DNA of 64,000 bases from a virus. Under the pieces are notes generated by a model that saw nothing but the letters and a program-made list of their open reading frames with translations, did no database searches and had not been told where the DNA came from. Location of the stretch: positions 32,001 to 96,000 of IMG/VR virus record IMGVR_UViG_3300042691_053605; one strand, written 5' to 3'. Of the stretch, positions 31,501 to 49,859 are shown in pieces (positions within the stretch are counted from its first letter, which is position 1; the number at the start of each line of letters is the position of its first letter). Position numbers and translations under genes: made by a program.

Positions 31501-32247
31501 ATGGCGCAGACAAAAATTCTAGCCATATCTTTTGCCTTCAATGAAATTAATTTCATTAAGTTAAAAAAACAATGGTGCAAAAATGAAAATATTGATCTCT
31601 ATATTATAGACAATATTTCTAATGATGGCACATGGGAATGCTTATTGGAGCAAGGCATTTCATGCCATCAATTTGATACAAATGGCGAGTTTCACCTAAA
31701 TAAGCTCCAGGATGAACTCATTAAAACTGTTCATGCTATTAAGCCTGATTGGATAATTTATATGGGCGCTGATGAATTTCTTTTTTCTCCAAATGGAATT
31801 AGAAAAGATATAGAAGAAGCGGATCGGCAAGGCTATACTGTCATAAATAATAAAACTTTAAACTTTCACAATACCGGTGAAAACTCAGACTTACATATGT
31901 TTGAAAAGTTTTTTTATTATAGCGATTACGGAACTCAGGTCAGAATAAAAAAGTACTCACCTAACATATCTTTGTGGGCTGACTATTTTGTAGGCGATAC
32001 AAATATCAAAAAATCGTCGGGATTTTGTCTTGTAAACTATGGAGATACAAAAACCGCTGCCGAGAGAGAAGAAACTCTTAAACGCAGAGAAAAAGCCTGG
32101 GCAAATAATCTGGATAAAAATTTTGGAAATCACTACGTAAAAGGGAAAGCAAAAAACTGGATCTGGGATAAAACCGAGCTTATCGATATTCGAACTACTA
32201 ATTATTCATGGGTTTTGCAAAAACTTAAAGAACTGAAATCCCTTTAA
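31501..32247 (+). CDS. Glycosyltransferase family 2-like protein
   Basis: FAFNE, IIDNISNDGT and WIIYMGADEF (GT-A DxD-like). Confidence 0.75.
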   Translation: MAQTKILAISFAFNEINFIKLKKQWCKNENIDLYIIDNISNDGTWECLLEQGISCHQFDTNGEFHLNKLQDELIKTVHAIKPDWIIYMGADEFLFSPNGIRKDIEEADRQGYTVINNKTLNFHNTGENSDLHMFEKFFYYSDYGTQVRIKKYSPNISLWADYFVGDTNIKKSSGFCLVNYGDTKTAAEREETLKRREKAWANNLDKNFGNHYVKGKAKNWIWDKTELIDIRTTNYSWVLQKLKELKSL

Positions 32248-33945: not shown

Positions 33946-36900
33946 TCAGTTTGCTAGGTAAACTTCTAGATAGTTTGGATTGTACTTAGTCTGAGTATTT
34001 CCATTACTATCGGTAATACTTAATTCTAAATCATACAAACCAGTTTCCATAAATGTCCAAAGGAATGACGGATCAATTACAGAACATACTTTAGTGCCAT
34101 CATGGTATAAATTCCATCGATAAGAAGTTTTGCCTGCAATATCCGACGCGTCAGAAGTAAAGAGCACCGAAGCGCCAGCAGGAATTTTCTTTTCCGCTAC
34201 ACCAATAGTGGAATCTTCCCATGTAAACGCAGAATTAATAGAATCTTCATACAAAAGTCTCATTGACTGCCATTGTTTAGTTCTGCTCCAAATTTTTGAA
34301 TTTGTAGGCTGAAACTTAAATGGAAGACTTAAAGGAACATACGCATAAAAAGTAGAACTGCTACCGGAACCGGCAATTTGAGGGCCGTTTGTATACAAAA
34401 TGTTATCATTTACAGAATTTATTGCGGTTCGGCTATTTTCAAAAAAGGTAGTTGTGCTGGTATTTCCAAGATACATTCCCTCATATAGGGTTCCACCTGA
34501 AGTTTGAACTACCACATTTGTCAACTCATATTTATTATAGTCATAAATTAATGCGGGATCTTCTGAGTAATCTGCGCTAAAATATACAGCGGTCTTTCCA
34601 AGTATTCCACGAGTTTTGTCCACTAAAACGCATTCAAAACTTTGGCTTTCTCCATCGCCATCGGTATCGGCAATATAAATTTTAAGATAATCTCCAGATG
34701 ATACTGCGGGAACCGTTGTTGTTAATGGAGTAATGAAACAAAAATCATCATACTCGGTAATTGTAATATCGGCAGACGGGCTGAAAAGTACTTCAACTCC
34801 TGCAGAATTGTATACCTTAACCAGGGCTTTAGGCCTAAACGTTTCAAAATTGTAAGAATTCCAGGAATTTCTTGCGTAAAAGCCGTAGTAGTCCTCGTCA
34901 TTTGTATAGTTTTCAAAAGACGGATTATACGGCTGACCGGATTCCTGTAAGAAAACCTGTGGAGCGCGATAAGGTGCAGCAAATTGTAGTAGACTACTAT
35001 CCAGGCTGCCGCCATAAAAACTATTCCAGTCTTTTACCCAGTTAAAGAAATTTCCTAACGGCAGAGTGTTACCACCATTGCTGTATTTGTTTTGTGTAAT
35101 AAATGCGTAGTTTTGATAGAAACTCATATCAATATTTGGAAGACCTAAATTGGTATATCCTAATAAATCTGTTCCTGGAGTTTTCCCCTGTACTGTAACA
35201 TAATAATTTGCATTAACAAGACCGCTATCACGTACAATTTTTACCAATGAACTTCTGTATGGATAAACCTCAAGACACATATAATTACTTGTTACGCCTG
35301 CTACTTGATCCAGAGTAATACTTTTAACAAATCCGTTTTCTCGTACAATCTGTCCAATGTTTGGCCCAAATTCGCCTATTACGCTGGAAGTATTTGGATC
35401 GTAAATATACCCTCCAAGAGGTAAACTGTCTCTATAACCTACAATATTAGTAATAACTCTGCTATTGGATTCAAGATTTCCGTGTATTACGCATGCCGGG
35501 ATCCATGGTCTAGATCCTACGGCGGCAGAGGTTGCTCCTATCAATATACTTGTAGGCGAACTATTAAAAACGTACCACCCAGGTTGAATGCCTTCTGCTT
35601 GTATTGAGCTTCCTTGTAATAAGCCTGTGAGTGAAGAAGTATCTCCAAACATAATATTGTTTGCAGGATTCCCCCAAGAAAACACACCGTAATATATGTG
35701 TTGGCCGTCTCGCTCTTCTACATTGTAATAAAATTTGGAAAGACCTGGGTTTTCATTTCTTTTTATGGTTCCGGTGGGATCATAAAAATTATTGTTTAAC
35801 AGGTCTGACATATATGTTGTTACGACAGAAGCGTCGGGCGGACACCCTGACAAATCAATTTCATACGGAATATCTTCATTAAATTGAATAGTCTGGCCTG
35901 CATAATTTGAATCATCATCTACCGCGATACGCGTGCTTGCAGGAAGCGTATAGTTCCAGTCAAGCGTGGTCCAGGTTTGTGAACATGAGTTTTCCCAATT
36001 CAGAGTAACTGCTTCATCCCAAGCAGTCTTTGTACCTAAATGTGTTTCTGCGTAGTCTTCATCAAAATCAGTAGCAGATTCTTCAAAAGTAGAGTCACAA
36101 CGATAAAGTTCTTGATCATCATCATTTAATGTTAATATGCTCCAACCGGTATTTCCTAATTGTCCTACATTTTCCACTCTTAAAGAAAAATCGCCTTCTG
36201 AAATTCCATGATCGTAATACCAGCCTTCCCCGGTTGAAGTATCTGCAGGGAATTGAGTTGAACTTTCAAATGCAGGATATATTGGATGCGTATTGAAATC
36301 CATTGTAATCTCTAAGTTACTCAAAGAATTTGCCGAAGAAAATGTTCTTGTTGGAAACACATCATATTTGTATTCAATCCAAGTTTTATATCCATTGCTT
36401 AAATAATCCTGCAAAAGGCCTTCTAGCTCATTCATTTCTTTCCCATCAATAGTTGCGGCTTCAATTGCCACAACACTTGAAGGAGAATCTGACCAAATAT
36501 CCCATGGATGCCCTTGGTTGCTGGTAACTTCGTACATATTAATTGTACGGAAATGTTGTTCGTATACTACACTTGTAGGAACAAATTCCGTAGAATTGGA
36601 AATTTCAATTACGCTTCTTTCACCTGTTGAAGATTTTACAGCTGCAGCATACACATTGCTTCCACAATAGGTTAAATCAGTTATCGGCATACCTGGAGAA
36701 ATTGTTGAAGGCTCATACTGTACAGGCGCAATTGGCGTTTGACCGGAAGAAGTGCTTGAAAGAGGAAATACTTCTATTTCACCGGTATTTTCATAAGAAA
36801 CATATAAAGAATTTGTATTTGCATTATACGCTAATTTTTTAGGAATTGGCCTATTTAATAAAGTAGTATTGATTGTCGCAGTTGACCATGCCAAATTCGG

Positions 36901-39900
36901 TCTTTTTGAAAGCCTCATTTGCATGGATGAATTGGCGGCCAAAAACCAAAAATTAACGGTAGACTCCGCGTAATCTTTTAATGTGCCTGGCCCGTATAAA
37001 GGAAAGCTCGCTGAAGACACGTTAGAAACGTTTGAGGTCGTTGGATCCAAGTTAATCGCATAATAGCCTGGCAAAACGTTATTACCTATGATTAATCTAG
37101 AAGCGCTTAGATTTGCGGTACCAAAAAAGTTTACGTAATTTGTAGCATTGTAAAAAGGTCCTGTTGCGGTTCCAGTGTAAGTCCTTTCATATGTTTGTAA
37201 ATTTGTTGATGGATTAATTACGGACAAACCAGCAATACCAGGTCCAGACGTAAATGCAGGATCAAAATAAAACACATATATTTTATTTACCGTTCCACCA
37301 ATATAACTAACATTTCTAATCATAAGAGGATTAGCTCCGGTACTTGCCGGTTGGGCATTGGAGATTACCACCAGGCTGATAGCTAAACTTGCACAGTTAA
37401 TCCGTGTTAGCCTATTTGACCCAAATTCCCAGCAATACATACAATCAGCACCTGGAACGTACACCATACCATCAATAGTGCCAGGTCCAGCCACCGTAAA
37501 ACTAGTGGTTGTCATAGTAACGGTATTGACAATATCCACGGTTACCCCATTTCCGTAAACCCAAAGTTCTTTATTTGAAGGAGTATCACGAGCTACCATT
37601 TTTGCCTCTTGCGTACTATTGCTTAGAGATGCTGAACGAAGCTCTGTATAGTATTCATTAGCCTCGCCCACAATTAGAGAAATTTCAGTAAACCCTGGAC
37701 GAATTTCAGTTAACGGATCTGCTGTTGTAACATAGGTTCCGCTTCCAGATGTATTAATGTAAAACATTGCCCGGTTACCCCAGTTAAATTCTGTAGGGCT
37801 TTCTAACTTTTCTAGAGTTACCGCTGTAGTTACTGCGGAATTTGTAGGCCATGGAGTTACTAACAAATTTCCGTTAGGCCCGGTCAAATTTCGATATTTG
37901 TAAATTTGGCCGTTTACCCATTCTCTACCTACAAAAGAGTCATTTGCAAAATTAAGTAGTTCTATTCCCGAGTCATCTCCAGAAATTGGATCTGCAATTT
38001 TACTATTAATTGGAATTCCCCATTTGTACGGAGGCTGAGACTTAAGAGTTCTGCTGTTATTTAGAGGAGTATCATTGTTTCCTTGTAATCTTACATATTG
38101 TCCAGGAGTTAAAGTTTTTCCATTGTCTGGTGTATAGAGATCATCCTTAATAATCACAGTATTTCCAATTTCACGAAGGCATTCCCAAGAAGTTGGACTC
38201 ACCTCAAAATTCTGTGGCCATGTAAATCCAGAGTCTAAAACAATTGTAATGTTGGTTCCGGTAATAGAAGAGCTAACAACCTCTCCTTGAAAAGTATTTC
38301 CGTCTCTTCTAAAGAAAATCCATTCGCCTGCTTGTGGAAGAGGCCGTGCTTGTTCATCCGTTAAAGCAATTATTACCGAAGGCGTTGCAGAATTAAATGA
38401 AGAAACATTTCCTATTTTATTATCATACGCACTTACGCGATACACTTCCTTTAGAGGATTCACTGGAAAATTCCAATTGTTTTCTCGTGAAAGCGGAGAA
38501 ACATATAGGCTGTCCCAGAGTATATCACAGTCATCCCATGCGGTCCAGGTTTTGATAGGGTTTACCCATCTTCCCCAGAATTCATCCCACATAAAAATTC
38601 CTTCATCCCAAGTATCAACGCAATTTTGTTCCAGCTGCAATATATTTGAATCCGAACCCGCGTTTCCATCTTTGTGTGGAAGACCTGGTTTGTATGATGG
38701 ACCTATAAATCTGGTGGCATAAGAAGAAATTGCCTCGGGCATATAAACCTCAATGTAGTTTCTTTTTATCTCATTAACCCAGTTATTATCGGTGTCATAT
38801 ACTATAAGTTCTACACGGTAAAACCCTTTGTACGGAAGAGCAACCCTATGATTTAAGTGGTTATCAATACTGCTTCTGCCTGAAGTATATGTAAATGTAG
38901 GAGTTCCGTATTCGGAATCCACTTTCCATTCCATTTCGTAAAAATTACCACGGCCAATTTCATCCCATGTATACAAAACAGAAGTGTGCCCGCCGTAAAT
39001 TTTTGCTCCCGGAGAGTACAAATACCCGTTTCCGCCAGCGGTTAATCTAGCACCTTCATGCACATATATTGTTTGAGGACTTGGATTTGAAAAATTTGTG
39101 GTAAAAGAAGTAACATCAATGTAGGCTCCTACAGGATCTACATTCGTAATAACAGTTGGCTTTGGAATACCATCACCTACTACCATTGAACCCACATTGT
39201 ACGGCTGTGTTTGTGGAGCAACGTTAAATGTAGTAAAAATTCTTGAAGTTGTAGGACTAAGCACGCTGATGCTTGTAGCAGTTGCCTCTATTATTTGTAA
39301 TTTACCGTTTTCTAATTTAGTTACCGCGGTGGCTCCTATACCATCACCTCCTACAAATTCAATTGAAGGCGTTAATGAATAGCCGCTTCCTTGCGATACA
39401 ATTTCCACCGCAAGCACTGCCCCTGAAGTTATAGGATCATCATCAATGTATACATTTAGGCTGCCATCTTCCGCGCTCCATAAATCGTTCCAGCTAAACG
39501 CCATTTCATCCCAGGTAACCTCAAATCCTAAAGCAGTCAGATCCACAAATGCCGCAACCGGTGCTCCACTTTCATTGGTATTTCCTGTTTCTGGAACGCC
39601 ATCAAAATAGCCAACCTTTGGTCCTGGTACCAGTGTTTTTGCAATGTCATATGTTATTGCAGGTGTAGCAGAGGTTACCGGATCTATTGCAGTTAGTGTA
39701 TAATTTGAAAGAACTGGATATCCTTTACCAATGGTAGTAGTTTTTACGCCTTCCAAGGAATAATTAATATCATCATATGCAAGCTTAAACCCGGTTCCAG
39801 AACCTGATACATAAGCAGCATTTCCGTATAGCGTTGTATATGTTAAGCTACTTAACTGTGAAAATGCTTGAGGTAATTGCAAATATCGGCTATCCTGATT

Positions 39901-42339
39901 AAGATTATTTAGCACCGTAACTGATGTAACGCTTCCTCCGGTAACCGCAGCAACTCTAAGTCGAATAGGATTTGAAAATACTCCACCATTTAATACGATA
40001 ATGTCATTTACCGCATAACCAGATCCTCCTACTGAATTTCCACTTAAAGTATACGTACCGGGAAACGCTGTAACGTACGCAGATCCTTGCCATATCTGTG
40101 AAGGACTTGCTGAGGTAGAAGATGAAAGTATTATGTTTGGTATACGATCAAATGCAGCGGATGAATTTATAGTAATTCCTGTGATGTTGTATGTAGAATA
40201 AAAGCTACCAATTGTGTTTTGCCCAGGAACCATTACCTTTGCTGACGCCGTAGAATCGTATTCCCGCGCATCAATAAGTTTTACTCGATCTTCATCAGCA
40301 GTAAAATCTACGTTTCGTGTAGCAATAAATTCAAAACCCTGTACTCGGTCATTCCAGGTATTAGCAGCATATCTTTCATAATATACGCCTTCTCCTACAA
40401 TATCTACAATTCTTGCGCTTAGAGGCAAAAAGTTATTTGACAAATACTGCTTAAGAGCAAAGAGCTTAATTAAAACTTCTTCATTGCTGTACTGAAACGC
40501 ATCAATTGTAAGAGGAACTCCGTTTTCATCAAGTACTCCGTTTTCTTTATTTAGATCATAAAAAAGACCAAATTTATTTGTCTTTTTGTAAACCTTGTTA
40601 GGCAGCATTCCAATACTTGAATACGGAACACCTCTTTCCTGTAGTTGAAACGGGATTTGTATCTGTTTGTATTTTCCATAGTAAACATCATCTTTGTTTA
40701 CATTTAGCCAATACTCTTTAATTCGCAAATCATAATAGCCAAACCAGTTAACAATGTTTACGATACCTTTATACGAACCCATGTAAGGCCATATTTCATC
40801 GCCTTGCAAAAGCATTTCCTTTCTCTTCTTATTCAATAAAGAATAGTCGGGAAGATCTTCATACACATTACTGTCACGCATAATTAATTCTTGCGTTTCA
40901 GTAACATCCCTTCCAAAATTTTGTAGCAGTCTTCCAAGCCTTGCGTCTTCTCCTTCTGCCTCGCCTATCATAAATACCTGTGCAAGCAAAATCGGATTGT
41001 ACGGAAAGGTTACATCCTGCAAAACAAAAAGTTTATTGTATACTCCTTCGGTTCCTGCAGAAAAACCAAAATGATATTGCATCATTTTCTCCTCCACATT
41101 CATTGCAGCAATACGATACTGCAATTCATTATCATTAACCGGAGAACCGCTTGAACCTAAAGTATAAAAATCTGCTATTTGATTGGTAAAGTTTACATCA
41201 TAATCTCCATCCACTGGTGGAATCATTAGTGATTCCGACTTTGTTATGTACGGATAATCTTCTCCATAAGTGACTGTAAAAAGAAAAATTTCAGGTTCAA
41301 CGCCAAGAACAGATCCTTTCCATTGCGGAACCGCTCTAAAATAAGTTTCCTCGGTGGCAAAAATTGTATTAGCAATAATACCAATATCAGAATTTGTTTG
41401 AAAAAATACCGATGTGTCTGACACCTGAGTTACATCAAATACGCCATTAATTGCAATAGGATTTGTGTCATTTGCAATACGTATTTTCATTCCTGCAACA
41501 AACCCGTGCTTTTTATACGCTTGAAGAGAAGCTATCGGTCCGTTTGCGGTAAATGTATGTGAAGTTCTTATTGTGGTTGAATTGATAATTTCTAAAATTG
41601 TAGTACCTGCTGGAACATTTGTTCCTTCAAGAACCATACCCACTTCTAGAGTAATTACAGGAGAAGTTACAGATACTGCATAAATTTTATCATCGCCCGC
41701 AGAGGAATTAGCAGTAAAAGAATACTTCATTACTGTAACTCTTCCTGAGTAAGAATCTGAATTGTTAGGAATTACATTGTTACGAGTACTGCTAAAAGAA
41801 CCTACCCAATTTTTTGGTCCTTCGTCTGCTCTAGGATACGAATACAGAGGAGCACCTGTGGATTCTCCTATTAGAGGAATCATTTTCTCGGTAATGAAAA
41901 TTGATTGGTTTTCGACCAATCCTGTAGATACTCTATCAAAATAAGTTTCGCCTTTCCAAGAAGTTGCAGGATATTGAAACCCGGAATTACCAGTTTTCCA
42001 ATCAGAAAACCCGGTGTAGGTTAAACCATCAAATCCGGTAATTGTACCCGTAGCCAAATCAATACTTAAATCTGCAGGATCACTATCCCATACATAACCA
42101 TTAATGTTTGTAAATCGCAAAAAGGTTTGGCCACTTGGATCATAATTAAAACCGCCGCTCTGTATTTCAAGTGCTGCAATATGGCCTTCTCTATTAGTAA
42201 AAACTTCAAAGCTTGCGCCATACCCATTTGTTGCTGCTGTTGCAGGTTCTACAACAGTAACTGTTACCGCTAAATCCGGTTGTAAATTTAGCTCGTTTCC
42301 TTTTTTGTCAAAGAAATTTAGTCTGGAAGTAAGTATCAT
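33946..42339 (-). CDS. Giant baseplate wedge protein (gp7-like core with GSGY repeats, propeller-like and PKD-like domains; 2797 aa)
   Basis: Wedge motif LGRLLQNFG...YMGSYKGIVNIVNWFGY; (S/Q)GSGY repeats; C-terminal PKD-like GLYDLELSITDSNGN; downstream of gp6. Confidence 0.7.
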   Translation of the reverse strand: MILTSRLNFFDKKGNELNLQPDLAVTVTVVEPATAATNGYGASFEVFTNREGHIAALEIQSGGFNYDPSGQTFLRFTNINGYVWDSDPADLSIDLATGTITGFDGLTYTGFSDWKTGNSGFQYPATSWKGETYFDRVSTGLVENQSIFITEKMIPLIGESTGAPLYSYPRADEGPKNWVGSFSSTRNNVIPNNSDSYSGRVTVMKYSFTANSSAGDDKIYAVSVTSPVITLEVGMVLEGTNVPAGTTILEIINSTTIRTSHTFTANGPIASLQAYKKHGFVAGMKIRIANDTNPIAINGVFDVTQVSDTSVFFQTNSDIGIIANTIFATEETYFRAVPQWKGSVLGVEPEIFLFTVTYGEDYPYITKSESLMIPPVDGDYDVNFTNQIADFYTLGSSGSPVNDNELQYRIAAMNVEEKMMQYHFGFSAGTEGVYNKLFVLQDVTFPYNPILLAQVFMIGEAEGEDARLGRLLQNFGRDVTETQELIMRDSNVYEDLPDYSLLNKKRKEMLLQGDEIWPYMGSYKGIVNIVNWFGYYDLRIKEYWLNVNKDDVYYGKYKQIQIPFQLQERGVPYSSIGMLPNKVYKKTNKFGLFYDLNKENGVLDENGVPLTIDAFQYSNEEVLIKLFALKQYLSNNFLPLSARIVDIVGEGVYYERYAANTWNDRVQGFEFIATRNVDFTADEDRVKLIDAREYDSTASAKVMVPGQNTIGSFYSTYNITGITINSSAAFDRIPNIILSSSTSASPSQIWQGSAYVTAFPGTYTLSGNSVGGSGYAVNDIIVLNGGVFSNPIRLRVAAVTGGSVTSVTVLNNLNQDSRYLQLPQAFSQLSSLTYTTLYGNAAYVSGSGTGFKLAYDDINYSLEGVKTTTIGKGYPVLSNYTLTAIDPVTSATPAITYDIAKTLVPGPKVGYFDGVPETGNTNESGAPVAAFVDLTALGFEVTWDEMAFSWNDLWSAEDGSLNVYIDDDPITSGAVLAVEIVSQGSGYSLTPSIEFVGGDGIGATAVTKLENGKLQIIEATATSISVLSPTTSRIFTTFNVAPQTQPYNVGSMVVGDGIPKPTVITNVDPVGAYIDVTSFTTNFSNPSPQTIYVHEGARLTAGGNGYLYSPGAKIYGGHTSVLYTWDEIGRGNFYEMEWKVDSEYGTPTFTYTSGRSSIDNHLNHRVALPYKGFYRVELIVYDTDNNWVNEIKRNYIEVYMPEAISSYATRFIGPSYKPGLPHKDGNAGSDSNILQLEQNCVDTWDEGIFMWDEFWGRWVNPIKTWTAWDDCDILWDSLYVSPLSRENNWNFPVNPLKEVYRVSAYDNKIGNVSSFNSATPSVIIALTDEQARPLPQAGEWIFFRRDGNTFQGEVVSSSITGTNITIVLDSGFTWPQNFEVSPTSWECLREIGNTVIIKDDLYTPDNGKTLTPGQYVRLQGNNDTPLNNSRTLKSQPPYKWGIPINSKIADPISGDDSGIELLNFANDSFVGREWVNGQIYKYRNLTGPNGNLLVTPWPTNSAVTTAVTLEKLESPTEFNWGNRAMFYINTSGSGTYVTTADPLTEIRPGFTEISLIVGEANEYYTELRSASLSNSTQEAKMVARDTPSNKELWVYGNGVTVDIVNTVTMTTTSFTVAGPGTIDGMVYVPGADCMYCWEFGSNRLTRINCASLAISLVVISNAQPASTGANPLMIRNVSYIGGTVNKIYVFYFDPAFTSGPGIAGLSVINPSTNLQTYERTYTGTATGPFYNATNYVNFFGTANLSASRLIIGNNVLPGYYAINLDPTTSNVSNVSSASFPLYGPGTLKDYAESTVNFWFLAANSSMQMRLSKRPNLAWSTATINTTLLNRPIPKKLAYNANTNSLYVSYENTGEIEVFPLSSTSSGQTPIAPVQYEPSTISPGMPITDLTYCGSNVYAAAVKSSTGERSVIEISNSTEFVPTSVVYEQHFRTINMYEVTSNQGHPWDIWSDSPSSVVAIEAATIDGKEMNELEGLLQDYLSNGYKTWIEYKYDVFPTRTFSSANSLSNLEITMDFNTHPIYPAFESSTQFPADTSTGEGWYYDHGISEGDFSLRVENVGQLGNTGWSILTLNDDDQELYRCDSTFEESATDFDEDYAETHLGTKTAWDEAVTLNWENSCSQTWTTLDWNYTLPASTRIAVDDDSNYAGQTIQFNEDIPYEIDLSGCPPDASVVTTYMSDLLNNNFYDPTGTIKRNENPGLSKFYYNVEERDGQHIYYGVFSWGNPANNIMFGDTSSLTGLLQGSSIQAEGIQPGWYVFNSSPTSILIGATSAAVGSRPWIPACVIHGNLESNSRVITNIVGYRDSLPLGGYIYDPNTSSVIGEFGPNIGQIVRENGFVKSITLDQVAGVTSNYMCLEVYPYRSSLVKIVRDSGLVNANYYVTVQGKTPGTDLLGYTNLGLPNIDMSFYQNYAFITQNKYSNGGNTLPLGNFFNWVKDWNSFYGGSLDSSLLQFAAPYRAPQVFLQESGQPYNPSFENYTNDEDYYGFYARNSWNSYNFETFRPKALVKVYNSAGVEVLFSPSADITITEYDDFCFITPLTTTVPAVSSGDYLKIYIADTDGDGESQSFECVLVDKTRGILGKTAVYFSADYSEDPALIYDYNKYELTNVVVQTSGGTLYEGMYLGNTSTTTFFENSRTAINSVNDNILYTNGPQIAGSGSSSTFYAYVPLSLPFKFQPTNSKIWSRTKQWQSMRLLYEDSINSAFTWEDSTIGVAEKKIPAGASVLFTSDASDIAGKTSYRWNLYHDGTKVCSVIDPSFLWTFMETGLYDLELSITDSNGNTQTKYNPNYLEVYLAN

Positions 42340-42617
42340 TAGGTACGCATTCTATGGTTTTTTGGCACTGTATAATTAAACGCCTTTTTAATGCTTCCAA
42401 CAGCATCAATAAGATAAACTAAAAGAGTCTGAAACCGTAAAAAAGTGTATTCTTTACGCGGATCAACTAACATATATTTTGAAATTATCTTTCCCATTAA
42501 ACGATTTTCATAGTCAAATCCTTGGTTTTTTAGCGAGTCCTGCTGATGTATCATCCAATTGTAATAGCTTGGACGATCTAAATGAGGACCGGATTTAGGA
42601 GTTTCTTCTATAATCAT
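42339..42617 (-). CDS. Hypothetical baseplate-associated protein
   Basis: 92 aa, overlapping both gp6-like and gp7-like genes. Confidence 0.6.
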   Translation of the reverse strand: MIIEETPKSGPHLDRPSYYNWMIHQQDSLKNQGFDYENRLMGKIISKYMLVDPRKEYTFLRFQTLLVYLIDAVGSIKKAFNYTVPKNHRMRT

Positions 42618-44314
42618 AAGTTCTTCTTAATGTTAGTTACCTCAGATCTATGAAATTCCATATTAAGATTTCTTGGAGTATCTTTTTTGGAAAATGTAAT
42701 GTTTAGAGTACTGTATTTGCCTGCTTCAATTCCCGGTGAAAAGTATGAGCCAAAACGATTTGCCCAGCCACCTCTAACAATTGCAATTTCACCTTTGCCT
42801 ATAATGATGTCACCAAAATCGTCAAGACCAATATCTGGCTTATTTGAATTGTCAGGGTTCTTTTTGAACTCTTCATTTTTTTCCGACACAAAATATACGT
42901 TTACCGAATCAACGCCTTCTACCGATTCAATTACGGAAATAAGATCCGATTTTGGTATACGATCTCTTCTTCTGCTAGCTAAAAAATAGTCAGAAGTTTT
43001 TGTTATGATTTGCTGCCTAATAACATCTTTATTAAAGCCTTCGTATGCCGTGATATTTGTAAACATTACGTATCTACTAAATATAGGATCAATAATTTTG
43101 TTAACTACAGTCATAAGTTTTTGACCGCTTTTTTCGATCAAATCATATATCTTTGTTTTTTCAATATTGCTGAGCTTAAACAAATCCAGAGGAATGGTGT
43201 AATAATCATCGGAAGATTTTTTTCGCTTGTTTACGTCAGGAATTAAGAAGAGATACACCACATTGTCATCAGTAATATCATCATCATTTAGTGTGGTAAA
43301 CGCATCTATAACTGAAAAGAAATTAAACTTTTGCAAAAAGTAAACATAATTATCAACATTTGCTAAAATGTAGGCTTTACTTGTTTTTGGCGCCAACAGC
43401 TTTGTTAAGAAAATAGGTTCTGCATCAGTTCCAAAATTAATTGGAACCTCCATTTGGATATTTAACGCTTTATTAAGATCTACTTCAGATCCTGCAATAT
43501 CAAACCCTTCATCTAAAAATTTGAAACTTGGAGAGTCGTCCACAATAATGTTTCCAGAGTTTCCGGAGGTAGTTAAGTATTCCACCCGTATTACGGCTCC
43601 TAACGGAGGATTTTTCCCAAAGTAGCCGTTTCCAAAGTAAACGTCGATTCCGGAGTCTATTCCGGTTTTGATGATAACGCCAGGTGTTTCGTACACCATA
43701 TCGTACAGGGACTCGTATTTTGGCCATTCCTCGTTATTTACATATACTTTTACAAAATTGTTGTCAATATTGAAATTCTTTTTTGGCAGTGTTGTAAATG
43801 ATTGCAAAGCCTCACCAGTTCCAGTATACGACTGCGCTTCAATAACGCCTTGTATTACTGATACCTCTATGGAGTTTTTGCCAGATAACTCAAGAGTAAC
43901 TACGTCCTGATCTAAAACTACTGTATAGGTTAAACCGTTTGTTTTACATTGCAACGAAGTATAATTAGGTATGATAACCGAATTACCGTACATATCAAGT
44001 TTTGCTCCACTGTAAGTTAACTTTAATGTACCAGACGCTCCAATAGGTCGGGTAGGATTGTGACCAGCAATACGTGCAAGTCCTCGGATAGAATTGGGAC
44101 GCTGCGCGGTATAAATGTTTAACTCATTTATGCTGTCTTCTATATAGTAAAAAAGAAGTCTTCCAAGATCTAGAATTACTTGTAAAAGCTGACCGTAAGG
44201 ACTTGCAGTGCTGAATACCTGATCTGCTTGTTCATACTTTGCCTGTAAAAAAGTTCTAGCGTCCTGATAGAGTTGCTCAAACGTTATTCTCGTAAGCTTA
44301 AAAATCTCTAACAT
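42614..44314 (-). CDS. Baseplate wedge subunit (T4 gp6-like)
   Basis: TAQRPNSIRGLARIAGHNP, VYFGNGYFGKNP and VEYLTTSGNSGN. Confidence 0.85.
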   Translation of the reverse strand: MLEIFKLTRITFEQLYQDARTFLQAKYEQADQVFSTASPYGQLLQVILDLGRLLFYYIEDSINELNIYTAQRPNSIRGLARIAGHNPTRPIGASGTLKLTYSGAKLDMYGNSVIIPNYTSLQCKTNGLTYTVVLDQDVVTLELSGKNSIEVSVIQGVIEAQSYTGTGEALQSFTTLPKKNFNIDNNFVKVYVNNEEWPKYESLYDMVYETPGVIIKTGIDSGIDVYFGNGYFGKNPPLGAVIRVEYLTTSGNSGNIIVDDSPSFKFLDEGFDIAGSEVDLNKALNIQMEVPINFGTDAEPIFLTKLLAPKTSKAYILANVDNYVYFLQKFNFFSVIDAFTTLNDDDITDDNVVYLFLIPDVNKRKKSSDDYYTIPLDLFKLSNIEKTKIYDLIEKSGQKLMTVVNKIIDPIFSRYVMFTNITAYEGFNKDVIRQQIITKTSDYFLASRRRDRIPKSDLISVIESVEGVDSVNVYFVSEKNEEFKKNPDNSNKPDIGLDDFGDIIIGKGEIAIVRGGWANRFGSYFSPGIEAGKYSTLNITFSKKDTPRNLNMEFHRSEVTNIKKNL

Positions 44315-44328
44315 TGATAGTGTTTATG

Positions 44329-44691
44329 TTATTTTGCAACCAGGCCAAAGGCCTTGGATCCATTAACATATATATCAATGTAGGCTAAATCCCTGACAGT
44401 TCCCGGGACAAAATTTACTTCAATCTTTAAGTCAAAATAACCCGCCTCTGTGACATAAGCGGCTACTTGTTCATCAAATTTTCTCTTTAACTCATTTGCG
44501 CTAAACCCAAATTCAAAAAGCAAGTCCTCTAAACTTAAACCAAAATTAGGATCACCTAAAATATCCCCTTTTCTGGTAAAGAGAATCATTTTAATTTTTT
44601 GCAAAAGAGTTTTAACCGAATCGCGCTCATCAATTTTATTCGGTTCATAACCAGGTTCAAGCTGGTTAATTATGTAGAGTTCTTTAAGCAT
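44329..44691 (-). CDS. Baseplate/sheath initiator (T4 gp25-like)
   Basis: ILFTRKGDILGDPNFGLSLEDLLFE. Confidence 0.85.
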   Translation of the reverse strand: MLKELYIINQLEPGYEPNKIDERDSVKTLLQKIKMILFTRKGDILGDPNFGLSLEDLLFEFGFSANELKRKFDEQVAAYVTEAGYFDLKIEVNFVPGTVRDLAYIDIYVNGSKAFGLVAK

Positions 44692-45422
44692 TAATGGAAT
44701 ATGTAGAACCAGTCTGGGCTGTTTTCGTCATCAATCTTTTGTTTGATTTCTTCTAGTTCCTCTTTACCTTCTTCTTTTATGGTATCAGCATTTACCTGTA
44801 CTCCTCCTGGAAGATTATATGTAAAAAAGCCTAAAATTCTACCCAAAGATATCTTTGCTTGCGCGGTTACCCAACGTTGAAAAAACCAGTCATCATAAAG
44901 TTTGTTTTCTTCAATCTTGGCATAGGTTTGCACAGAACAATTTCGTTTTGGATTTCTACCAATAATTTTTAGCCTTTTGGTATTGCGATTAAAGTCATAA
45001 GATACACGTTCAAGAATAAAGGCTTGCGTAAGATCCCAATATGAATACTGTGCTGCTCTGAGAACTAAATCATCAGAGGCAAATGGAGACAAAAACAATT
45101 CAGCGGCAAGCAGACGATTATCATAAAAGTCAGCATCTATGGTTCCTAAACGGCCAGCTCCTTGTATTTCACGGATTTCAAAAACAGAAACTACGCAATC
45201 TGGCATAAGAATTGAACGGGTTGCCTTAAATTCTGGAGTTTGAAACCAGTCCTTTGTTATTACATAATACTGTGTTTCTACCGCCGGCCCGTAATTAACA
45301 TAAAACCAATTTAGAGCCTGGTCTATAATACGGTTCATCTCACGCTCAGGCACAGAATACGGCAAAGAACAAGATCCTGTGATCTCGTTATTTACAATTT
45401 CTATTAGTTCGCCTCTAGTCAT
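44691..45422 (-). CDS. Neck protein (T4 gp13-like)
   Basis: IIDQALNWF, WFFQRWVTAQAK and LPGGVQVNADTIKEEGKEELEEI. Confidence 0.75.
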   Translation of the reverse strand: MTRGELIEIVNNEITGSCSLPYSVPEREMNRIIDQALNWFYVNYGPAVETQYYVITKDWFQTPEFKATRSILMPDCVVSVFEIREIQGAGRLGTIDADFYDNRLLAAELFLSPFASDDLVLRAAQYSYWDLTQAFILERVSYDFNRNTKRLKIIGRNPKRNCSVQTYAKIEENKLYDDWFFQRWVTAQAKISLGRILGFFTYNLPGGVQVNADTIKEEGKEELEEIKQKIDDENSPDWFYIFH

Positions 45423-45436
45423 TTATTAAACTTTTT

Positions 45437-45775
45437 TTATAGCTCGGGAATAAACCCAAGACTATTCATGCAATCCTGGTCAAAATAGTTTTTCTGACTT
45501 CTTGGATATTTATGACTCCACAAAACAGTTTCGTTTTCTACAATTTCAATATAAAAAAACCCTCCGCCTTCTCCTACAGTAATAACCCATTCCGATCCAG
45601 CGCGTTTGTCATTTCCAACATAAACCTCAGCAAAATCAAAACGATTATCAGTATTTTCTTCTGTGCGTTCTTCATCAAGTTCAAAAGTTATTCCATTAAG
45701 CCTAAGCTTTTTTTCAATATCAAATGGAAGAGACGCCTCATTTAAGAAGGACTCAAATGTTTTAACGTGTTTCAT
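45437..45775 (-). CDS. Hypothetical protein with capsid-targeting-like N-terminus
   Basis: MKHVKTFESFLNEA. Confidence 0.65.
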   Translation of the reverse strand: MKHVKTFESFLNEASLPFDIEKKLRLNGITFELDEERTEENTDNRFDFAEVYVGNDKRAGSEWVITVGEGGGFFYIEIVENETVLWSHKYPRSQKNYFDQDCMNSLGFIPEL

Positions 45776-45881
45776 TTTTCAAAGCTTTCAAAATTTCAAG
45801 ATTTGCCTGCATTTGCTTTCTTTTTTTAGATGCATTTGCACGATTTCTCCATTTAGGATGCGCCTTATGAGACTTAGCCAT
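45762..45881 (-). CDS. 39-aa highly basic peptide
   Basis: Manual translation MAKSHKAHPKWRNRANASKKRKQMQANLEILKALKNETR; its ATG overlaps the amidoligase stop (TAATG); not in the ORF track. Confidence 0.55.
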   Translation of the reverse strand: MAKSHKAHPKWRNRANASKKRKQMQANLEILKALKNETR

Positions 45882-47302
45882 TATTTCTTTTCTTTCTTTT
45901 TATCCTCCTTGTCGGATTCTTTAGCACCTTTTTCAGCATTTTTATAGCTTCCAGATGCTTCGGTTGGTTCAATTTGTTCAACAATAAGAGTTTCTTTTGA
46001 TACCTTTGCAAGCTTTCCAACTTCTCCGTTACGAATAACACCACGGTTAACTTCACAATTGATAATGTTTGTTTTGTTTTCAATAAAACAATCATTTAGA
46101 ACATTTCCTACGTGTAACGGGCATTCTGCAACTTTTGAAAAGTTAACGGTATTTCCTTTTGAAAATGTACAAAAGGTTAGTCGGCTATTTTTTATTTCGC
46201 AGTTGTAAAAAGTTCCTCTTTCAACTACACCTTCAATTTCACAGTTAACAAATTCCATGTCAATTAAACGGCAATTTCTAAGTTTGCTATCTTTTAACTG
46301 AAATGTACCAATTTCAGAATCATAATTAAATTCGCCTTTTTCCATTCCGCCGGTCATAATAACCTCAAAGAGTTTATCTCTTAAATTTGCCCAAACACTT
46401 TCAATGACTTCATTATCATCATTCATATCAAGTGTTACCTTAATCTTTGGGAACGCTTGTTTGAAATGGCAGTACTTTACAAACCCTTCAGCAATTTTAT
46501 TTTGCTTCTTTACCAGTTTTTCCAATTCACGTTTTTCACCGCTAGTATATTCTACAAAATTAAGAGTAGCGTGCATATGCTGAATAAAATACTCAATCAA
46601 ATCCAAAATTTTCTTGGTTTTCTTTTCATAGTCAGCGCCTCCCATATAACGGTATTCCAAATAGCCTTTTTCTAATTTGGTAAAGTTAACACCGTAATAC
46701 TTTTCGGCAGGGGTTGCAAATGTTTGTTTGCTGTAAACTGAGCTGTTAGGTGAAACAAAGAAATTTGCTTTATTGGCACGAATTTCACGAATACTTCTTG
46801 CATATACAGAGTCTTTTCTTTTTGGAAAAACACTGTATACACGGTCCTCGTCAAATGAAAGTATAAATTTTAGAACATTTGTATCTTTAATGTCAAATAA
46901 TGTAGGTAATTTAACCGGATCAATAGAAACATTGGCATGTATTGAGCATCTCTCGTTTGTATAACCATTGTTACTTATCCATTCAAACATTTTTATGATA
47001 ATGTTACGGGCTTCCGTATATTTCATAGGACCGGTTACCAACTCACACATGGTAAGTCCACCGGAATAATCTGGCTCCAATTTGAAAACGCTATCAGTTG
47101 GCTGGATTGGCGAATGATAAAGAGGCTTTGGCTTATTAATATCACCAAGCGCGTACGGTACAACTACGCGTTTTCCAATAAACTTGGAAATTGAACGTGC
47201 AGTTTCCTGTACATCTTTAAAGTTTGAATAGAATTCAAATTCAATTCCAACTTTACCGGCTTCCAGAACCTCTTCTGGGCGATAGCTTTTCTTAATCTTC
47301 AT
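45881..47302 (-). CDS. Putative amidoligase (COOH-NH2 ligase) with C-terminal beta-helix
   Basis: VGIEFEF, EPDYSGG..CELVTGP, CSIHANVS, KYYGVNF and LEYRY motifs; C-terminal NC(E/R)(I/L/V)-type short repeats. Confidence 0.75.
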   Translation of the reverse strand: MKIKKSYRPEEVLEAGKVGIEFEFYSNFKDVQETARSISKFIGKRVVVPYALGDINKPKPLYHSPIQPTDSVFKLEPDYSGGLTMCELVTGPMKYTEARNIIIKMFEWISNNGYTNERCSIHANVSIDPVKLPTLFDIKDTNVLKFILSFDEDRVYSVFPKRKDSVYARSIREIRANKANFFVSPNSSVYSKQTFATPAEKYYGVNFTKLEKGYLEYRYMGGADYEKKTKKILDLIEYFIQHMHATLNFVEYTSGEKRELEKLVKKQNKIAEGFVKYCHFKQAFPKIKVTLDMNDDNEVIESVWANLRDKLFEVIMTGGMEKGEFNYDSEIGTFQLKDSKLRNCRLIDMEFVNCEIEGVVERGTFYNCEIKNSRLTFCTFSKGNTVNFSKVAECPLHVGNVLNDCFIENKTNIINCEVNRGVIRNGEVGKLAKVSKETLIVEQIEPTEASGSYKNAEKGAKESDKEDKKKEKK

Positions 47303-48506
47303 TTGGGATGGTCAAGAAAATTTTATCGTTGTGTACTCTGTCTACAGTTACCATAACCTTCTCACCTACAACGTATTTTTTCTTTTTATTTTTTGTTTCT
47401 TTTTGTGAAATAAGTCCTACAATATCTTTTTGAAGTTTTACCAATGTACCGAACGGCTGAATTGATACAACTTCACCACCTGTAATTACTCCAAGATTCT
47501 TTTCTTTGAAATCCTCAATTTCTTTCATGCGAATACTGGGATCTTCATCGGTAAGTATAATCTTTTTGTCAGCAGTAATTTCTTTAATCCAGAAAGAGAT
47601 TTCTTCGCCGGCTTTGAATTTGCCTTCTTTGAATTCTTCACGCATTGCGGGTGTCATCTTACTTGTATGAATCAATCCTGTGAAGATTTCGCTAAATTCA
47701 ACAAAAATACCAAACTTAGCAGTTCCAGTAATAGTACCTACATATTTTTCAGTAGTACTAAGGCTTTCAATTTTTGAAGGTAAAATGTAGTTCAAATACT
47801 TTTTATGGCTAAATACAAAGGCACCTAAATCTTTTAGGTAATCTTCTACCATTACAGCAACTTCTTTGCCTAACATGGAATCAAAATCCCTAACTACGTT
47901 GGCAGCAGCAAGCGAACCTGGTAAGAACCCTTCTACGCCATTTACGTTTACAAGGAATCCACCTCCGTTTCTGCTAATTATTTTTGCATAATAAGCATTT
48001 GTAGGTTTTGCAATTTGTTCAAAGAATTCTCTGCGAATACCATCAGCATATCCTTTACTTAAGGAGGCAATAGTAAACGGCTTAATAGTTTCAATTGTAG
48101 CTTTTCTGTTAGCGTTTGCTACAAAAGCGTCGCGTGAACCTTCCTGTTGCATCCATTCGTAAAAAGAATGCTGGTCCATTTCGATATTTCTGAAAAATGG
48201 CTTTTCCTTTTCTAATTGAATAACCGCTTCCACCATTCCTGAGAGGGTAACTACCATCTCTTTTTCATTGATACTTACAACAGATACAATGGATCTGCAT
48301 TCACCAATTTGAGGTTCTTTTGCGTTTTGCGGTAAGGCTTTTTCGTACGCTAAAAACGCGTCCTCCGCGCCAGCGTCGTGTCTCCATACACTAGCACTGT
48401 ATTTTGCTAGTATATCTTTGTTTGGAACTCTCTTCATTCGAAGATCCTCAGCAACTGCCAGGTCCCAATCAAAGTCTACAATTTCTGTGTTATTTTTTAT
48501 TTGCAT
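47292..48506 (-). CDS. Ribosomal protein S1-like multi-S1-domain protein
   Basis: S1 repeats GGFLVNVNGVEGFLPGS, GTITGTAKFGIFVEF...GLIHTS and GEVVSIQPFGTLVKL...GLIS. Confidence 0.85.
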   Translation of the reverse strand: MQIKNNTEIVDFDWDLAVAEDLRMKRVPNKDILAKYSASVWRHDAGAEDAFLAYEKALPQNAKEPQIGECRSIVSVVSINEKEMVVTLSGMVEAVIQLEKEKPFFRNIEMDQHSFYEWMQQEGSRDAFVANANRKATIETIKPFTIASLSKGYADGIRREFFEQIAKPTNAYYAKIISRNGGGFLVNVNGVEGFLPGSLAAANVVRDFDSMLGKEVAVMVEDYLKDLGAFVFSHKKYLNYILPSKIESLSTTEKYVGTITGTAKFGIFVEFSEIFTGLIHTSKMTPAMREEFKEGKFKAGEEISFWIKEITADKKIILTDEDPSIRMKEIEDFKEKNLGVITGGEVVSIQPFGTLVKLQKDIVGLISQKETKNKKKKYVVGEKVMVTVDRVHNDKIFLTIPNED

Positions 48507-48525
48507 ATTGATTTGTGTTTCTAAG

Positions 48526-48534
48526 CTATATATC
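48526..48534 (-). promoter_or_regulatory. Class A late-promoter-like motif (GATATATAG)
   Basis: 19 nt upstream of the S1 start codon. Confidence 0.6.
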
Positions 48535-48538
48535 CATT

Positions 48539-49108
48539 CTACTTAATGCCACCAATAAATACTACTGGTATTTTTGCGGCAGCAATCGCATCGGGAACGG
48601 AAAACGTAGGTGAAAGCGTAAGTTCAATAGGAACCGGATTTAGAATAGCGGAAGCTCCGACTCCAACTGTAAGAGTTCCCGGTGGTATCGTTACCACTAA
48701 ATCCGCGCGTTTTATATTTGTAACTATAATATCGGCTAATAGAGGTGAAAGCTGCGCAACCAGTGCTTTTACAATATCAGAAGAAATATGTGCGGATAGG
48801 CAATCTGCCCACTCGGCAGCAACAACAGTCCACAGCTGATTCTTAAAGTCTACACGTTTTTGGACAGTGTCAAGATTTCCCGGTGCATTTTCAATTGCCC
48901 ACTTATCAATGGCTTCTTGCACCGAAAACACGCTGTTTTTTGTATTTTCTACAACTCCGCCTAAACGTTCGTCTTCGTCAACGCCTAATGCGGTATGTAA
49001 AGGTAGCGGATCTGCAAAGTGTGCAAGAAGAGAAGCCTTTATTGTTGGCTCCAGTGACTGAAACGCTGCTGCTAATTCAGTAGCTAACAGAGGTGTGTTT
49101 AATGGCAT
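48539..49108 (-). CDS. Hypothetical protein downstream of the spike gene
   Basis: 189-aa ORF in the baseplate operon. Confidence 0.6.
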   Translation of the reverse strand: MPLNTPLLATELAAAFQSLEPTIKASLLAHFADPLPLHTALGVDEDERLGGVVENTKNSVFSVQEAIDKWAIENAPGNLDTVQKRVDFKNQLWTVVAAEWADCLSAHISSDIVKALVAQLSPLLADIIVTNIKRADLVVTIPPGTLTVGVGASAILNPVPIELTLSPTFSVPDAIAAAKIPVVFIGGIK

Positions 49109-49118
49109 ATTTTATTTT

Positions 49119-49859
49119 TTAGATTGTTTTAACTACAGGCAAACCAGTTTTGCCACTTAAATGTTGTACAGGAGTCATGGGTATAACTGGTGGAGACGTG
49201 GGAGCTCCCATATTTCCAATATGTGTATGAGAATTAAAAAGAGCCAGAAATGAATCCCCTAATACCACTCTTTCAATTGCTCCTGCACCTAATTCGACGG
49301 TATTTGTATGATCAATTATTACGTTTTTTGTAGTAACATTAACAGAGTCTTCTGCATATATGTTAATTCGCGGCCCGATTAACTCAATTACGCTTTTACT
49401 CTCTTTGTGTTCAATTGTAATACTGCTATCTGGGTTAACTATAATTTGCGATTCCTTATGAAATAAATTAAGACCTTTTCCTGGAGTGTAAAAGATTTTT
49501 ACCTGCTCATCCTCATCATAGAGCAATACATGGCTTCCTAAATAACTATCAGAAATTTCTGATTGCATTGCTCGATTAATTGTTTGAATGCCATAATACT
49601 CGGGAGAGTATAAATTTCCTTCTGAAAATTGTATTCTTACAATTGCTCCTATTTTAGGAATCGATAGTGATCCAAATCCGCCTTCGCCTCCTGCAAATAC
49701 GGTATTTGTGACAGGAAAAGCCCACGGAATTGCATCATTTTCAAGCTCATCAAATAAACTAAATACTTTTATTCGGCATCTACCAAGCTGTTCAGGATCG
49801 TTGTTTTCTACAACTTCGCCTAACCAAATTCGATCTCTTAGTTCTTGTGTTGATGGCAT
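49119..49859 (-). CDS. Baseplate central spike (gp5/gpV-like OB-fold, no lysozyme domain)
   Basis: WLGEVVENNDPEQLGRCRIKV, IPKIGAIV; C-terminal HTH(IGNMG) metal-binding tip motif. Confidence 0.85.
   Translation of the reverse strand: MPSTQELRDRIWLGEVVENNDPEQLGRCRIKVFSLFDELENDAIPWAFPVTNTVFAGGEGGFGSLSIPKIGAIVRIQFSEGNLYSPEYYGIQTINRAMQSEISDSYLGSHVLLYDEDEQVKIFYTPGKGLNLFHKESQIIVNPDSSITIEHKESKSVIELIGPRINIYAEDSVNVTTKNVIIDHTNTVELGAGAIERVVLGDSFLALFNSHTHIGNMGAPTSPPVIPMTPVQHLSGKTGLPVVKTI

Follow-up and report, generated by a model that had tools for sequence, protein, structure and literature searches.

A ribosomal protein S1-like gene and a glutamine synthetase-fold ligase-like gene linked in the baseplate block of jumbo phages

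Genes resembling that of ribosomal protein S1 (rpS1) are present in huge phages without Shine-Dalgarno sites, and it is difficult to establish whether they are true rpS1 genes (Al-Shayeb et al. 2020, PMC7162821). Phage S1 homologues have been invoked in support of a redirection of host translation by huge phages. Here we examine one such gene in a 64,000-nucleotide (nt) stretch of viral DNA (positions 32,001 to 96,000 of IMG/VR record IMGVR_UViG_3300042691_053605, hereafter the window), where it is followed by a gene for a ligase-like protein of glutamine synthetase (GS) fold and by a gene for a basic peptide of 39 amino acids (aa). The source record (142.9 kb), judged to be about half complete, has no other S1 gene. 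Carboxylate-amine ligases encoded beside a small or a ribosomal protein are known from Pup tagging by PafA and from the tailing of ribosomal protein bS6 by RimK, whose fold is ATP-grasp and not that of GS. An initial annotation of this DNA had listed a motif, a multi-S1 gene, an 11-nt overlap, a TAATG junction and a Lys/Arg-rich open reading frame (ORF) of 39 aa; all of these are present, and the three ORFs are genuine genes. What emerges is an S1 that is a single-copy core gene of the baseplate block, with a conserved promoter-like motif of its own and a ligase-derived partner that can survive as a pseudoenzyme, and that offers testable handles in expression timing, presence in the virion and formation of an S1-ligase complex. 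A literature search on S1 domain, jumbo phage and virion returned no paper, and we did not find the S1/ligase-like pairing in a baseplate block described. Phage S1 homologues have already been reported; we regard the pairing, the subclade of dead enzymes and the microprotein family as modest new observations.

Our synteny sample comprised 66 IMG/VR and 52 metagenome loci anchored on the ligase-like gene, plus 35 loci of a distant subclade (subclade C, see below). In the ligase-anchored loci the order of spike, S1-like, ligase-like, 243-aa, gp25-like and gp6-like genes holds down to 27-38% identity and across three deep subclades, and a check of related phages thus bore out, for most relatives, that the S1 and ligase-like genes are linked. 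The trio had been placed between spike and neck genes, and the spike side of this placement is correct, as a gp5-like spike gene lies upstream of the S1-like gene. An 836-aa gene is upstream as well. On the other side comes the 243-aa gene, whose match to a PHROG labelled head-tail adaptor is confined to the C-terminal part of the latter, and then the gp25-like and gp6-like wedge genes, and therefore "baseplate block" is a better description of the setting than "neck". All genes of the region are on the minus strand and tightly packed. In the window CCAAATGAAGATTAA contains both the stop of the S1-like gene and the ATG of the ligase-like gene, which gives the overlap of 11 nt; the same overlap is seen in about 11 distinct relatives, the gap being otherwise 14-133 nt, or about 950 nt with one gene inserted. 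In many loci of subclades B and C, 1-3 kb of other genes separate the two.

Among public phage records, homologues of the ligase-like gene were found in only six uncultured huge-phage genomes (462-735 kb), and a DNA search of the phage collection detected no cultured relative. The closest public genomes, the LR7565xx series and LR745206, are from the huge-phage set of Al-Shayeb et al. 2020 (PMC7162821). The S1 and ligase-like genes are single-copy core genes of a large clade that comprises jumbo and huge phages, with exactly one S1 orthologue (E-values of 1e-57 to 1e-93) and exactly one ligase orthologue in each of five complete genomes of 462-735 kb. In such genomes the two need not be neighbours: by record coordinates, the S1 gene lies about 50-440 kb from the ligase-like gene in the four genomes of 635-735 kb, and the pair is also unlinked in one further locus (L119). 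Even after separation, each of the two still lies near homologues of the window's large structural-region genes. In LR745206.1, LR756501.1, LR756502.1 and LR756504.1 (loci L002-L005 and L127-L133) the baseplate block as such is scattered, with the ligase-like, S1, 243-aa and gp25-like genes found in different places and orientations. The S1 and ligase-like proteins have diverged (27-41% identity) to a degree similar to that of their structural neighbours (29-46%).

The S1-like protein matches the Pfam S1 model (E-value of 4.6e-16) in three stretches, and S1_RRP5 covers a fourth domain. Its AlphaFold2 (AF2) model, with a predicted local distance difference test score (pLDDT) of 83.6, has N-terminal helices followed by four oligonucleotide/oligosaccharide-binding (OB) domains, and the bounds of the S1/OB domains are about residues 70-148, 172-233, 254-319 and 341-399. 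The NCBIfam rpsA models are collinear with residues 74-395 (positions 24-340 of 391 in NF005208) at an E-value of 1e-20, with scores below the equivalog cut-offs (73.9 bits vs. 368 for NF005208, 71.6 vs. 577 for TIGR00717). Because the similarity to bS1 is collinear but the scores are far under the rpsA cut-offs, the protein is best regarded as a bS1 derivative, not as an equivalog. The best matches by sequence in the PDB are domains 2-3 of bS1, with residues 178-304 aligned on residues 111-239 of E. coli S1, and the top Foldseek match of the AF2 model is again E. coli bS1 (E-value of 2e-20). The most conserved part is a block in the second domain (D2), G182-F208, which is invariant across 21 diverse S1 homologues, and the D2-like pattern GG[FY]...G..F[LM]PGSLA..N...DF is common to the phage family and to the D2 of cellular bS1. 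The family also retains motifs of the RNA-binding type, FG.FV...GL.H. Thus, tandem S1 domains and the D2 motif GGF...G..F(L/M)PGSL are shared with cellular bS1 and with the rpS1-like proteins of huge phages. In contrast to these, the window protein has only four domains in 404 aa and a distinct helical N-terminus, and its gene is fixed in a baseplate block, beside a ligase-like gene.

The ligase-like protein was initially described as an amidoligase plus a beta-helix, and its AF2 model (pLDDT 90.1, predicted template modelling score, pTM, 0.86) clearly predicts both a GS catalytic-domain fold (about residues 7-265) and, beyond a helical linker, a single-chain beta-helix (about 323-445), followed by a disordered tail rich in Lys and Glu. 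Residues 7-260 align with glutamine synthetases at Z 10.6 and a root-mean-square deviation (rmsd) of 3.8 over 188 residues, whereas Dop, PafA, gamma-GCS and YbdK-like proteins give Z values of 8.1-8.9 (Dop 8.9, PafA 8.3), and Foldseek returns GS, GCS and YbdK with a probability of 1.0. In sequence, the protein reaches 17 bits against Amidoligase_2 (PF12224), under the cut-off of 22, and 13 of 51 diverse orthologues match that family (best E-value of 8.2e-8). Many phage models called "amidoligase" in BFVD match it. The family is large, with 555 matches in one database and 701 representative clusters in another; the window protein has no match in PHROGs or NCBIfam. A catalytic-type set (E21, E23, E76, D78, E87, H122, R162, E216, R218) is complete in the window protein, and by motif analogy with glutamine synthetase these residues may bind metal, ATP and carboxylate. 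The fold and the ExE, E, E, H, R and ExR-type residues are held in common with GS, with gamma-glutamylcysteine ligase/YbdK and with PafA/Dop. What sets the window protein apart is a score under the Pfam cut-off, a C-terminal beta-helix fused to the ligase domain, a gene that belongs to a structural block and an orthologous subclade that is catalytically dead in its entirety.

As for the beta-helix, it scores 19.5 bits against Pentapeptide_4 (PF13599), below the cut-off of 38, while the family profile matches MfpA (E-value of 2.6e-7) and a McbG-like protein (E-value of 2e-5) over residues of about 315-400. In structure it aligns with NP275/276 (Z 8.0, rmsd 4.0) and with the upper tail protein of phage Andhra (Z 7.9), and matches to left-handed helices have an rmsd >10. 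Profile match and predicted beta-helix may relate it to the pentapeptide-repeat proteins MfpA, Qnr and McbG; here, however, the helix scores below Pfam cut-offs and is a domain of a larger enzyme-like protein and not a free DNA mimic. DNA mimicry by the beta-helix was considered and set aside, as this helix is only mildly acidic (isoelectric point 5.3).

Whether the catalytic residues are conserved has two answers. They are in the window protein, and all 63 distinct orthologues from subclades A and B and from the huge phages retain the set except for a few H122Q and one E76L. They are not in subclade C. About 14 distant family members have lost the catalytic set in a correlated manner, and anchoring on such dead members yielded 35 further IMG/VR loci, which make up subclade C. 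In these, S1 lies upstream in 30 of the 35, and the 243-aa, gp25-like and gp6-like genes lie downstream. Across 34 of the loci, E21 is replaced by V, I, T or K (gapped in two), E76 by L, V, I or F, E87 by Q, S, K or R, H122 by K, R, S, Q or I, R162 by Q, M, S or F (kept in L209) and R218 by N, whereas E152, Y219, G222, N326 and D328 are invariant and a length of 440-485 aa is kept. The N-domain of the dead proteins is still well conserved, with invariant residues scattered along its length. In S1 (34-41% identity) and in the 243-aa protein (39-46%), subclade C is nearer to the window than is the other distant subclade. Since subclade C retains the gene, its length and its place while the active site has been replaced, the role of the ligase-like family that is conserved at this locus is non-catalytic.

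If the ligase acted on S1, a residue of S1 might be expected to follow its activity. We compared 19 and 35 distinct S1 proteins from the two ligase-active subclades with 24 from the dead one, and no residue of S1 tracked ligase activity: sites conserved in both active groups stay conserved in the dead group, with a conservative change at V269 as the sole exception. The S1 C-terminus reads ...PNE[DEGSAN] only in the subclade of the window, an acidic end that arises because the overlap with the ligase start constrains it, and ...KVFLKL or ...FLKMP elsewhere. The window's S1 family thus has no conserved acidic C-terminus, in contrast to bS6, the protein tailed by RimK. This missing signature of an acceptor site would weaken, and do no more than weaken, a model of modification.

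For the 39-aa peptide (12 of 39 residues K or R, isoelectric point 11.6), tblastn at standard settings missed the orthologues and sensitive settings were needed. Orthologues immediately follow the ligase stop in 18 loci (11 distinct), with ATG, GTG or TTG as the start, 2-15 nt from the first base of that stop. In their alignment, MA[KR]AKK at the N-terminus is followed by a KPKRNRxNL core and then by an amphipathic helix at the C-terminus. The ratio of nonsynonymous to synonymous change (pN/pS) is 0.16-0.6, and 0.16-0.21 for the closest pairs, with pN of 0.07-0.5 and pS saturated; this purifying selection upholds the peptide as a genuine gene. A profile search retrieved 121 clusters of 35-45 aa (E-values down to 1e-17) on contigs of up to 591 kb, so that we take the peptides to be a real and widespread family of phage microproteins. 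PHROGs and NCBIfam gave no match and the Atlas only unnamed clusters with scores <0.9; against the PDB, the profile yielded nothing beyond chance matches to coiled coils (E >1), with no ribosomal protein among them.

It had been proposed that S1, ligase and peptide form one unit, and this does not hold. Peptide follows ligase only in part of the window's subclade, being missing behind the ligase in about 17 distinct loci of that same subclade and in all loci of subclades B and C. Conversely, in 58 IMG/VR loci anchored on the peptide, the ligase is the upstream gene in one and other genes are in 57; these upstream genes (L134-L191) include a tail-tube gene, a 77-aa gene before a PD-(D/E)XK nuclease, a zinc-finger/HNH-like gene and a gene before a gp32-like single-stranded DNA-binding protein. 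Here too the peptide mostly starts 0-13 nt after the upstream stop. Fourteen of the loci share proteins with the window's own record, and therefore related phages have the peptide at other sites, and one contig has both a ligase lacking the peptide and a peptide 17 kb away (L067, L164). Recurrence behind unrelated genes suggests a mobile, translationally coupled microgene, for which the position after the ligase would be one of many and would imply no tie of enzyme to substrate. What is added is thus a widespread, unnamed family of phage microproteins that would be coupled in translation to any upstream gene. We also considered a frameshift fusion, as the peptide lies in the -1 frame with respect to the ligase and this frame stays open further upstream, but set it aside, given that a start-capable codon (ATG/GTG/TTG) is conserved at the first position and that the peptide follows unrelated genes.

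The 32-nt spacer upstream of the S1-like gene contains GATATATAG, and in 12 distinct relatives, where the flanking sequence has diverged, GATATATA[GC] precedes the S1 ATG by 17-27 nt. Copies of GATA[AT]ATA in the window number 10 on the coding strand vs. one on the other, and most of them lie 4-29 nt ahead of a start codon; the exact 8-mer by itself is found 6 times vs. 3 expected, an enrichment that is not significant. Of the "late-type motif" first noted here, the conserved promoter-like motif stands, whereas "late" derives from the kind of genes that it precedes. An extended form, GATATATAGnTTAGAAA, is present on the minus strand at 48527, 29506 and 5333, before S1, a 273-aa gene and a 108-aa gene, and a sister form, GATAAATAA, before five other genes. 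Another copy of GATATATA, at 44369-44376, falls within the 3' end of the gp25-like gene, with the gp6-like start 54 nt further on, and may be an internal promoter. A scan for terminators between 42 and 50 kb gave 6 sites vs. 5.2 expected in shuffled sequence, i.e. no excess.

How, then, can this arrangement be explained? The explanation we favour, tentatively and with a little less than even confidence, is that these are co-inherited but separate late genes: an S1 by which the phage would serve translation, a binding protein derived from a ligase, and a microgene that hitchhikes. The three would probably be co-transcribed with the baseplate genes from promoters of the GATA(A/T)ATA type. The S1-like protein would most likely be made alongside structural proteins and, as homology and the huge-phage literature suggest, bind A-rich phage mRNA leaders devoid of Shine-Dalgarno sequences, on or beside the 30S subunit of the host. 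The ligase-like protein of the window, translationally coupled to S1, may still ligate an amine to a carboxylate, but what the family has in common would be a role in binding or scaffolding, exerted through ligase-like fold and helix. The 39-aa gene would land behind the stops of unrelated genes and be translated by coupling. Several points weigh against this explanation: its late timing we infer from position and motif alone; the 11-nt overlap and the adjacency of the pair in three deep subclades could reflect a physical S1-ligase complex; and the embedding in the baseplate block, like the nearness to structural genes after separation, fits a role in the virion or its assembly at least equally well.

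The latter two points lead to alternatives. A stable, non-covalent S1-ligase complex, in which the ligase-derived protein would be an adaptor or regulator that targets the phage S1 to particular mRNAs, ribosomes or assembly sites and for which catalysis would be dispensable, strikes us as rather unlikely. It would account for adjacency that outlasts catalytic death, for an overlapping stop and start that favours equimolar synthesis, and for the conserved N-domain of the dead subclade with its spread of invariant residues; but one would not expect the intervening genes in many B and C loci or the unlinked pairs in four huge genomes and L119, and since the entire block is syntenic, adjacency alone is weak evidence. 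We likewise doubt, without dismissing it, that the S1-like and ligase-like proteins are virion-associated, as components of baseplate or tail or as cargo loaded into the tail for ejection along with the DNA; beta-helix and OB domains would then be modules of structure or host contact. Both genes lie between spike and wedge genes in three deep subclades, diverge as their structural neighbours do and stay near structural-region homologues when separated in the 635-735 kb genomes; the pseudoenzymes imply a non-catalytic role, and beta-helices are common in tail proteins, the Andhra protein noted above being an instance. Yet the collinear four-domain alignment with bS1 and the FG.FV...GL.H motifs point to RNA binding, neither protein matches a PHROG structural family, and the beta-helix is predicted to be self-contained, single-chain and probably of the pentapeptide type, not a trimeric fibre. 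Virion association is nevertheless a live and more novel alternative. In its most far-reaching version, to which we give a low probability, a bS1-derived RNA-binding protein and a GS-derived (pseudo)enzyme with a beta-helix would, across a large clade of jumbo phages, have been recruited to the baseplate or tail lumen; they would either be built into the baseplate or leave with the ejected genome, in the latter case to seize host ribosomes as soon as infection begins.

The initial annotation had favoured a module for hijacking translation late in infection: the substrate of the ligase would be S1, a ribosomal protein, the peptide or a virion protein, which it would modify, and ribosomes or RNA may be bound by the peptide. 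This now seems to us quite improbable. It is true that the window ligase has all catalytic-type residues and is translationally coupled to both S1 and peptide, that S1-ligase linkage is widespread, and that PafA and Dop, which ligate a small protein tag, have the same fold (Z 8.3-8.9). Our tests, however, gave no sign that S1 or the peptide is modified. In subclade C the pair stays syntenic although the active site is dead, S1 has no residue whose conservation is limited to ligase-active groups, and the S1 C-terminus is variable and non-acidic in subclades B and C. The peptide, for its part, is missing from many loci of the window's own subclade and from all of B and C, is preceded by unrelated genes in all but one of the peptide-anchored loci, and resembles no ribosomal protein in the PDB. 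Its C-termini are variable, and the Pup-like end GG[QE] was not found in them; unlike Pup with PafA, it is generally not linked to the ligase. Thus, it appears that separate, co-inherited genes, rather than an enzyme encoded with its substrates, best describe the locus.

The features of the locus are collected in Table 1.

Table 1. Features in and around the S1/ligase-like pair, in window coordinates
Feature	Position	Strand	Remarks
Promoter-like motif GATATATA(G) = GATATATAG	48527-48534	minus	20 nt before S1 ATG
bS1-like gene, 404 aa	47292-48506	minus	N-terminal helices and four S1/OB domains
GS-fold ligase-like and beta-helix gene, 473 aa	45881-47302	minus	
Basic microprotein gene, 39 aa	45762-45881	minus	Start overlaps ligase stop (TAATG)
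112-aa gene with MKHVKTFESFLNE-type leader	45437-45775	minus	Overlaps peptide stop by 14 nt
gp5-like central spike gene	49119-49859	minus	Phage_base_V, E-value 5e-8; phrog_37871, phrog_430
Conserved 243-aa gene with gp25-like (120 aa) and gp6-like (566 aa) wedge genes	42614-45422	minus	PHROG and Pfam matches
2797-aa giant ORF	33946-42339		Directly after wedge genes
189-aa gene between spike and S1	48539-49108		

Some of the neighbouring genes vary more than the pair itself. Distant relatives have, between spike and S1, a gene of 574-642 aa without a family match (L030:2849-4573 and L037:1838-3766), and the window's 189-aa gene in the equivalent slot is unrelated to it. The giant ORF of 2797 aa has an N-terminus that is kept in relatives (53% in L148). 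In the slot of the 112-aa gene, relatives have different genes with the same leader. This leader, MK[HY][IV]xTFExF[LV]xE, opens a paralogous set of genes that fill variable slots, e.g. the gap between the ligase-like and 243-aa genes in relatives (L001-L024), and at least 10 genes of the 143-kb record bear it, the 112-aa gene included.

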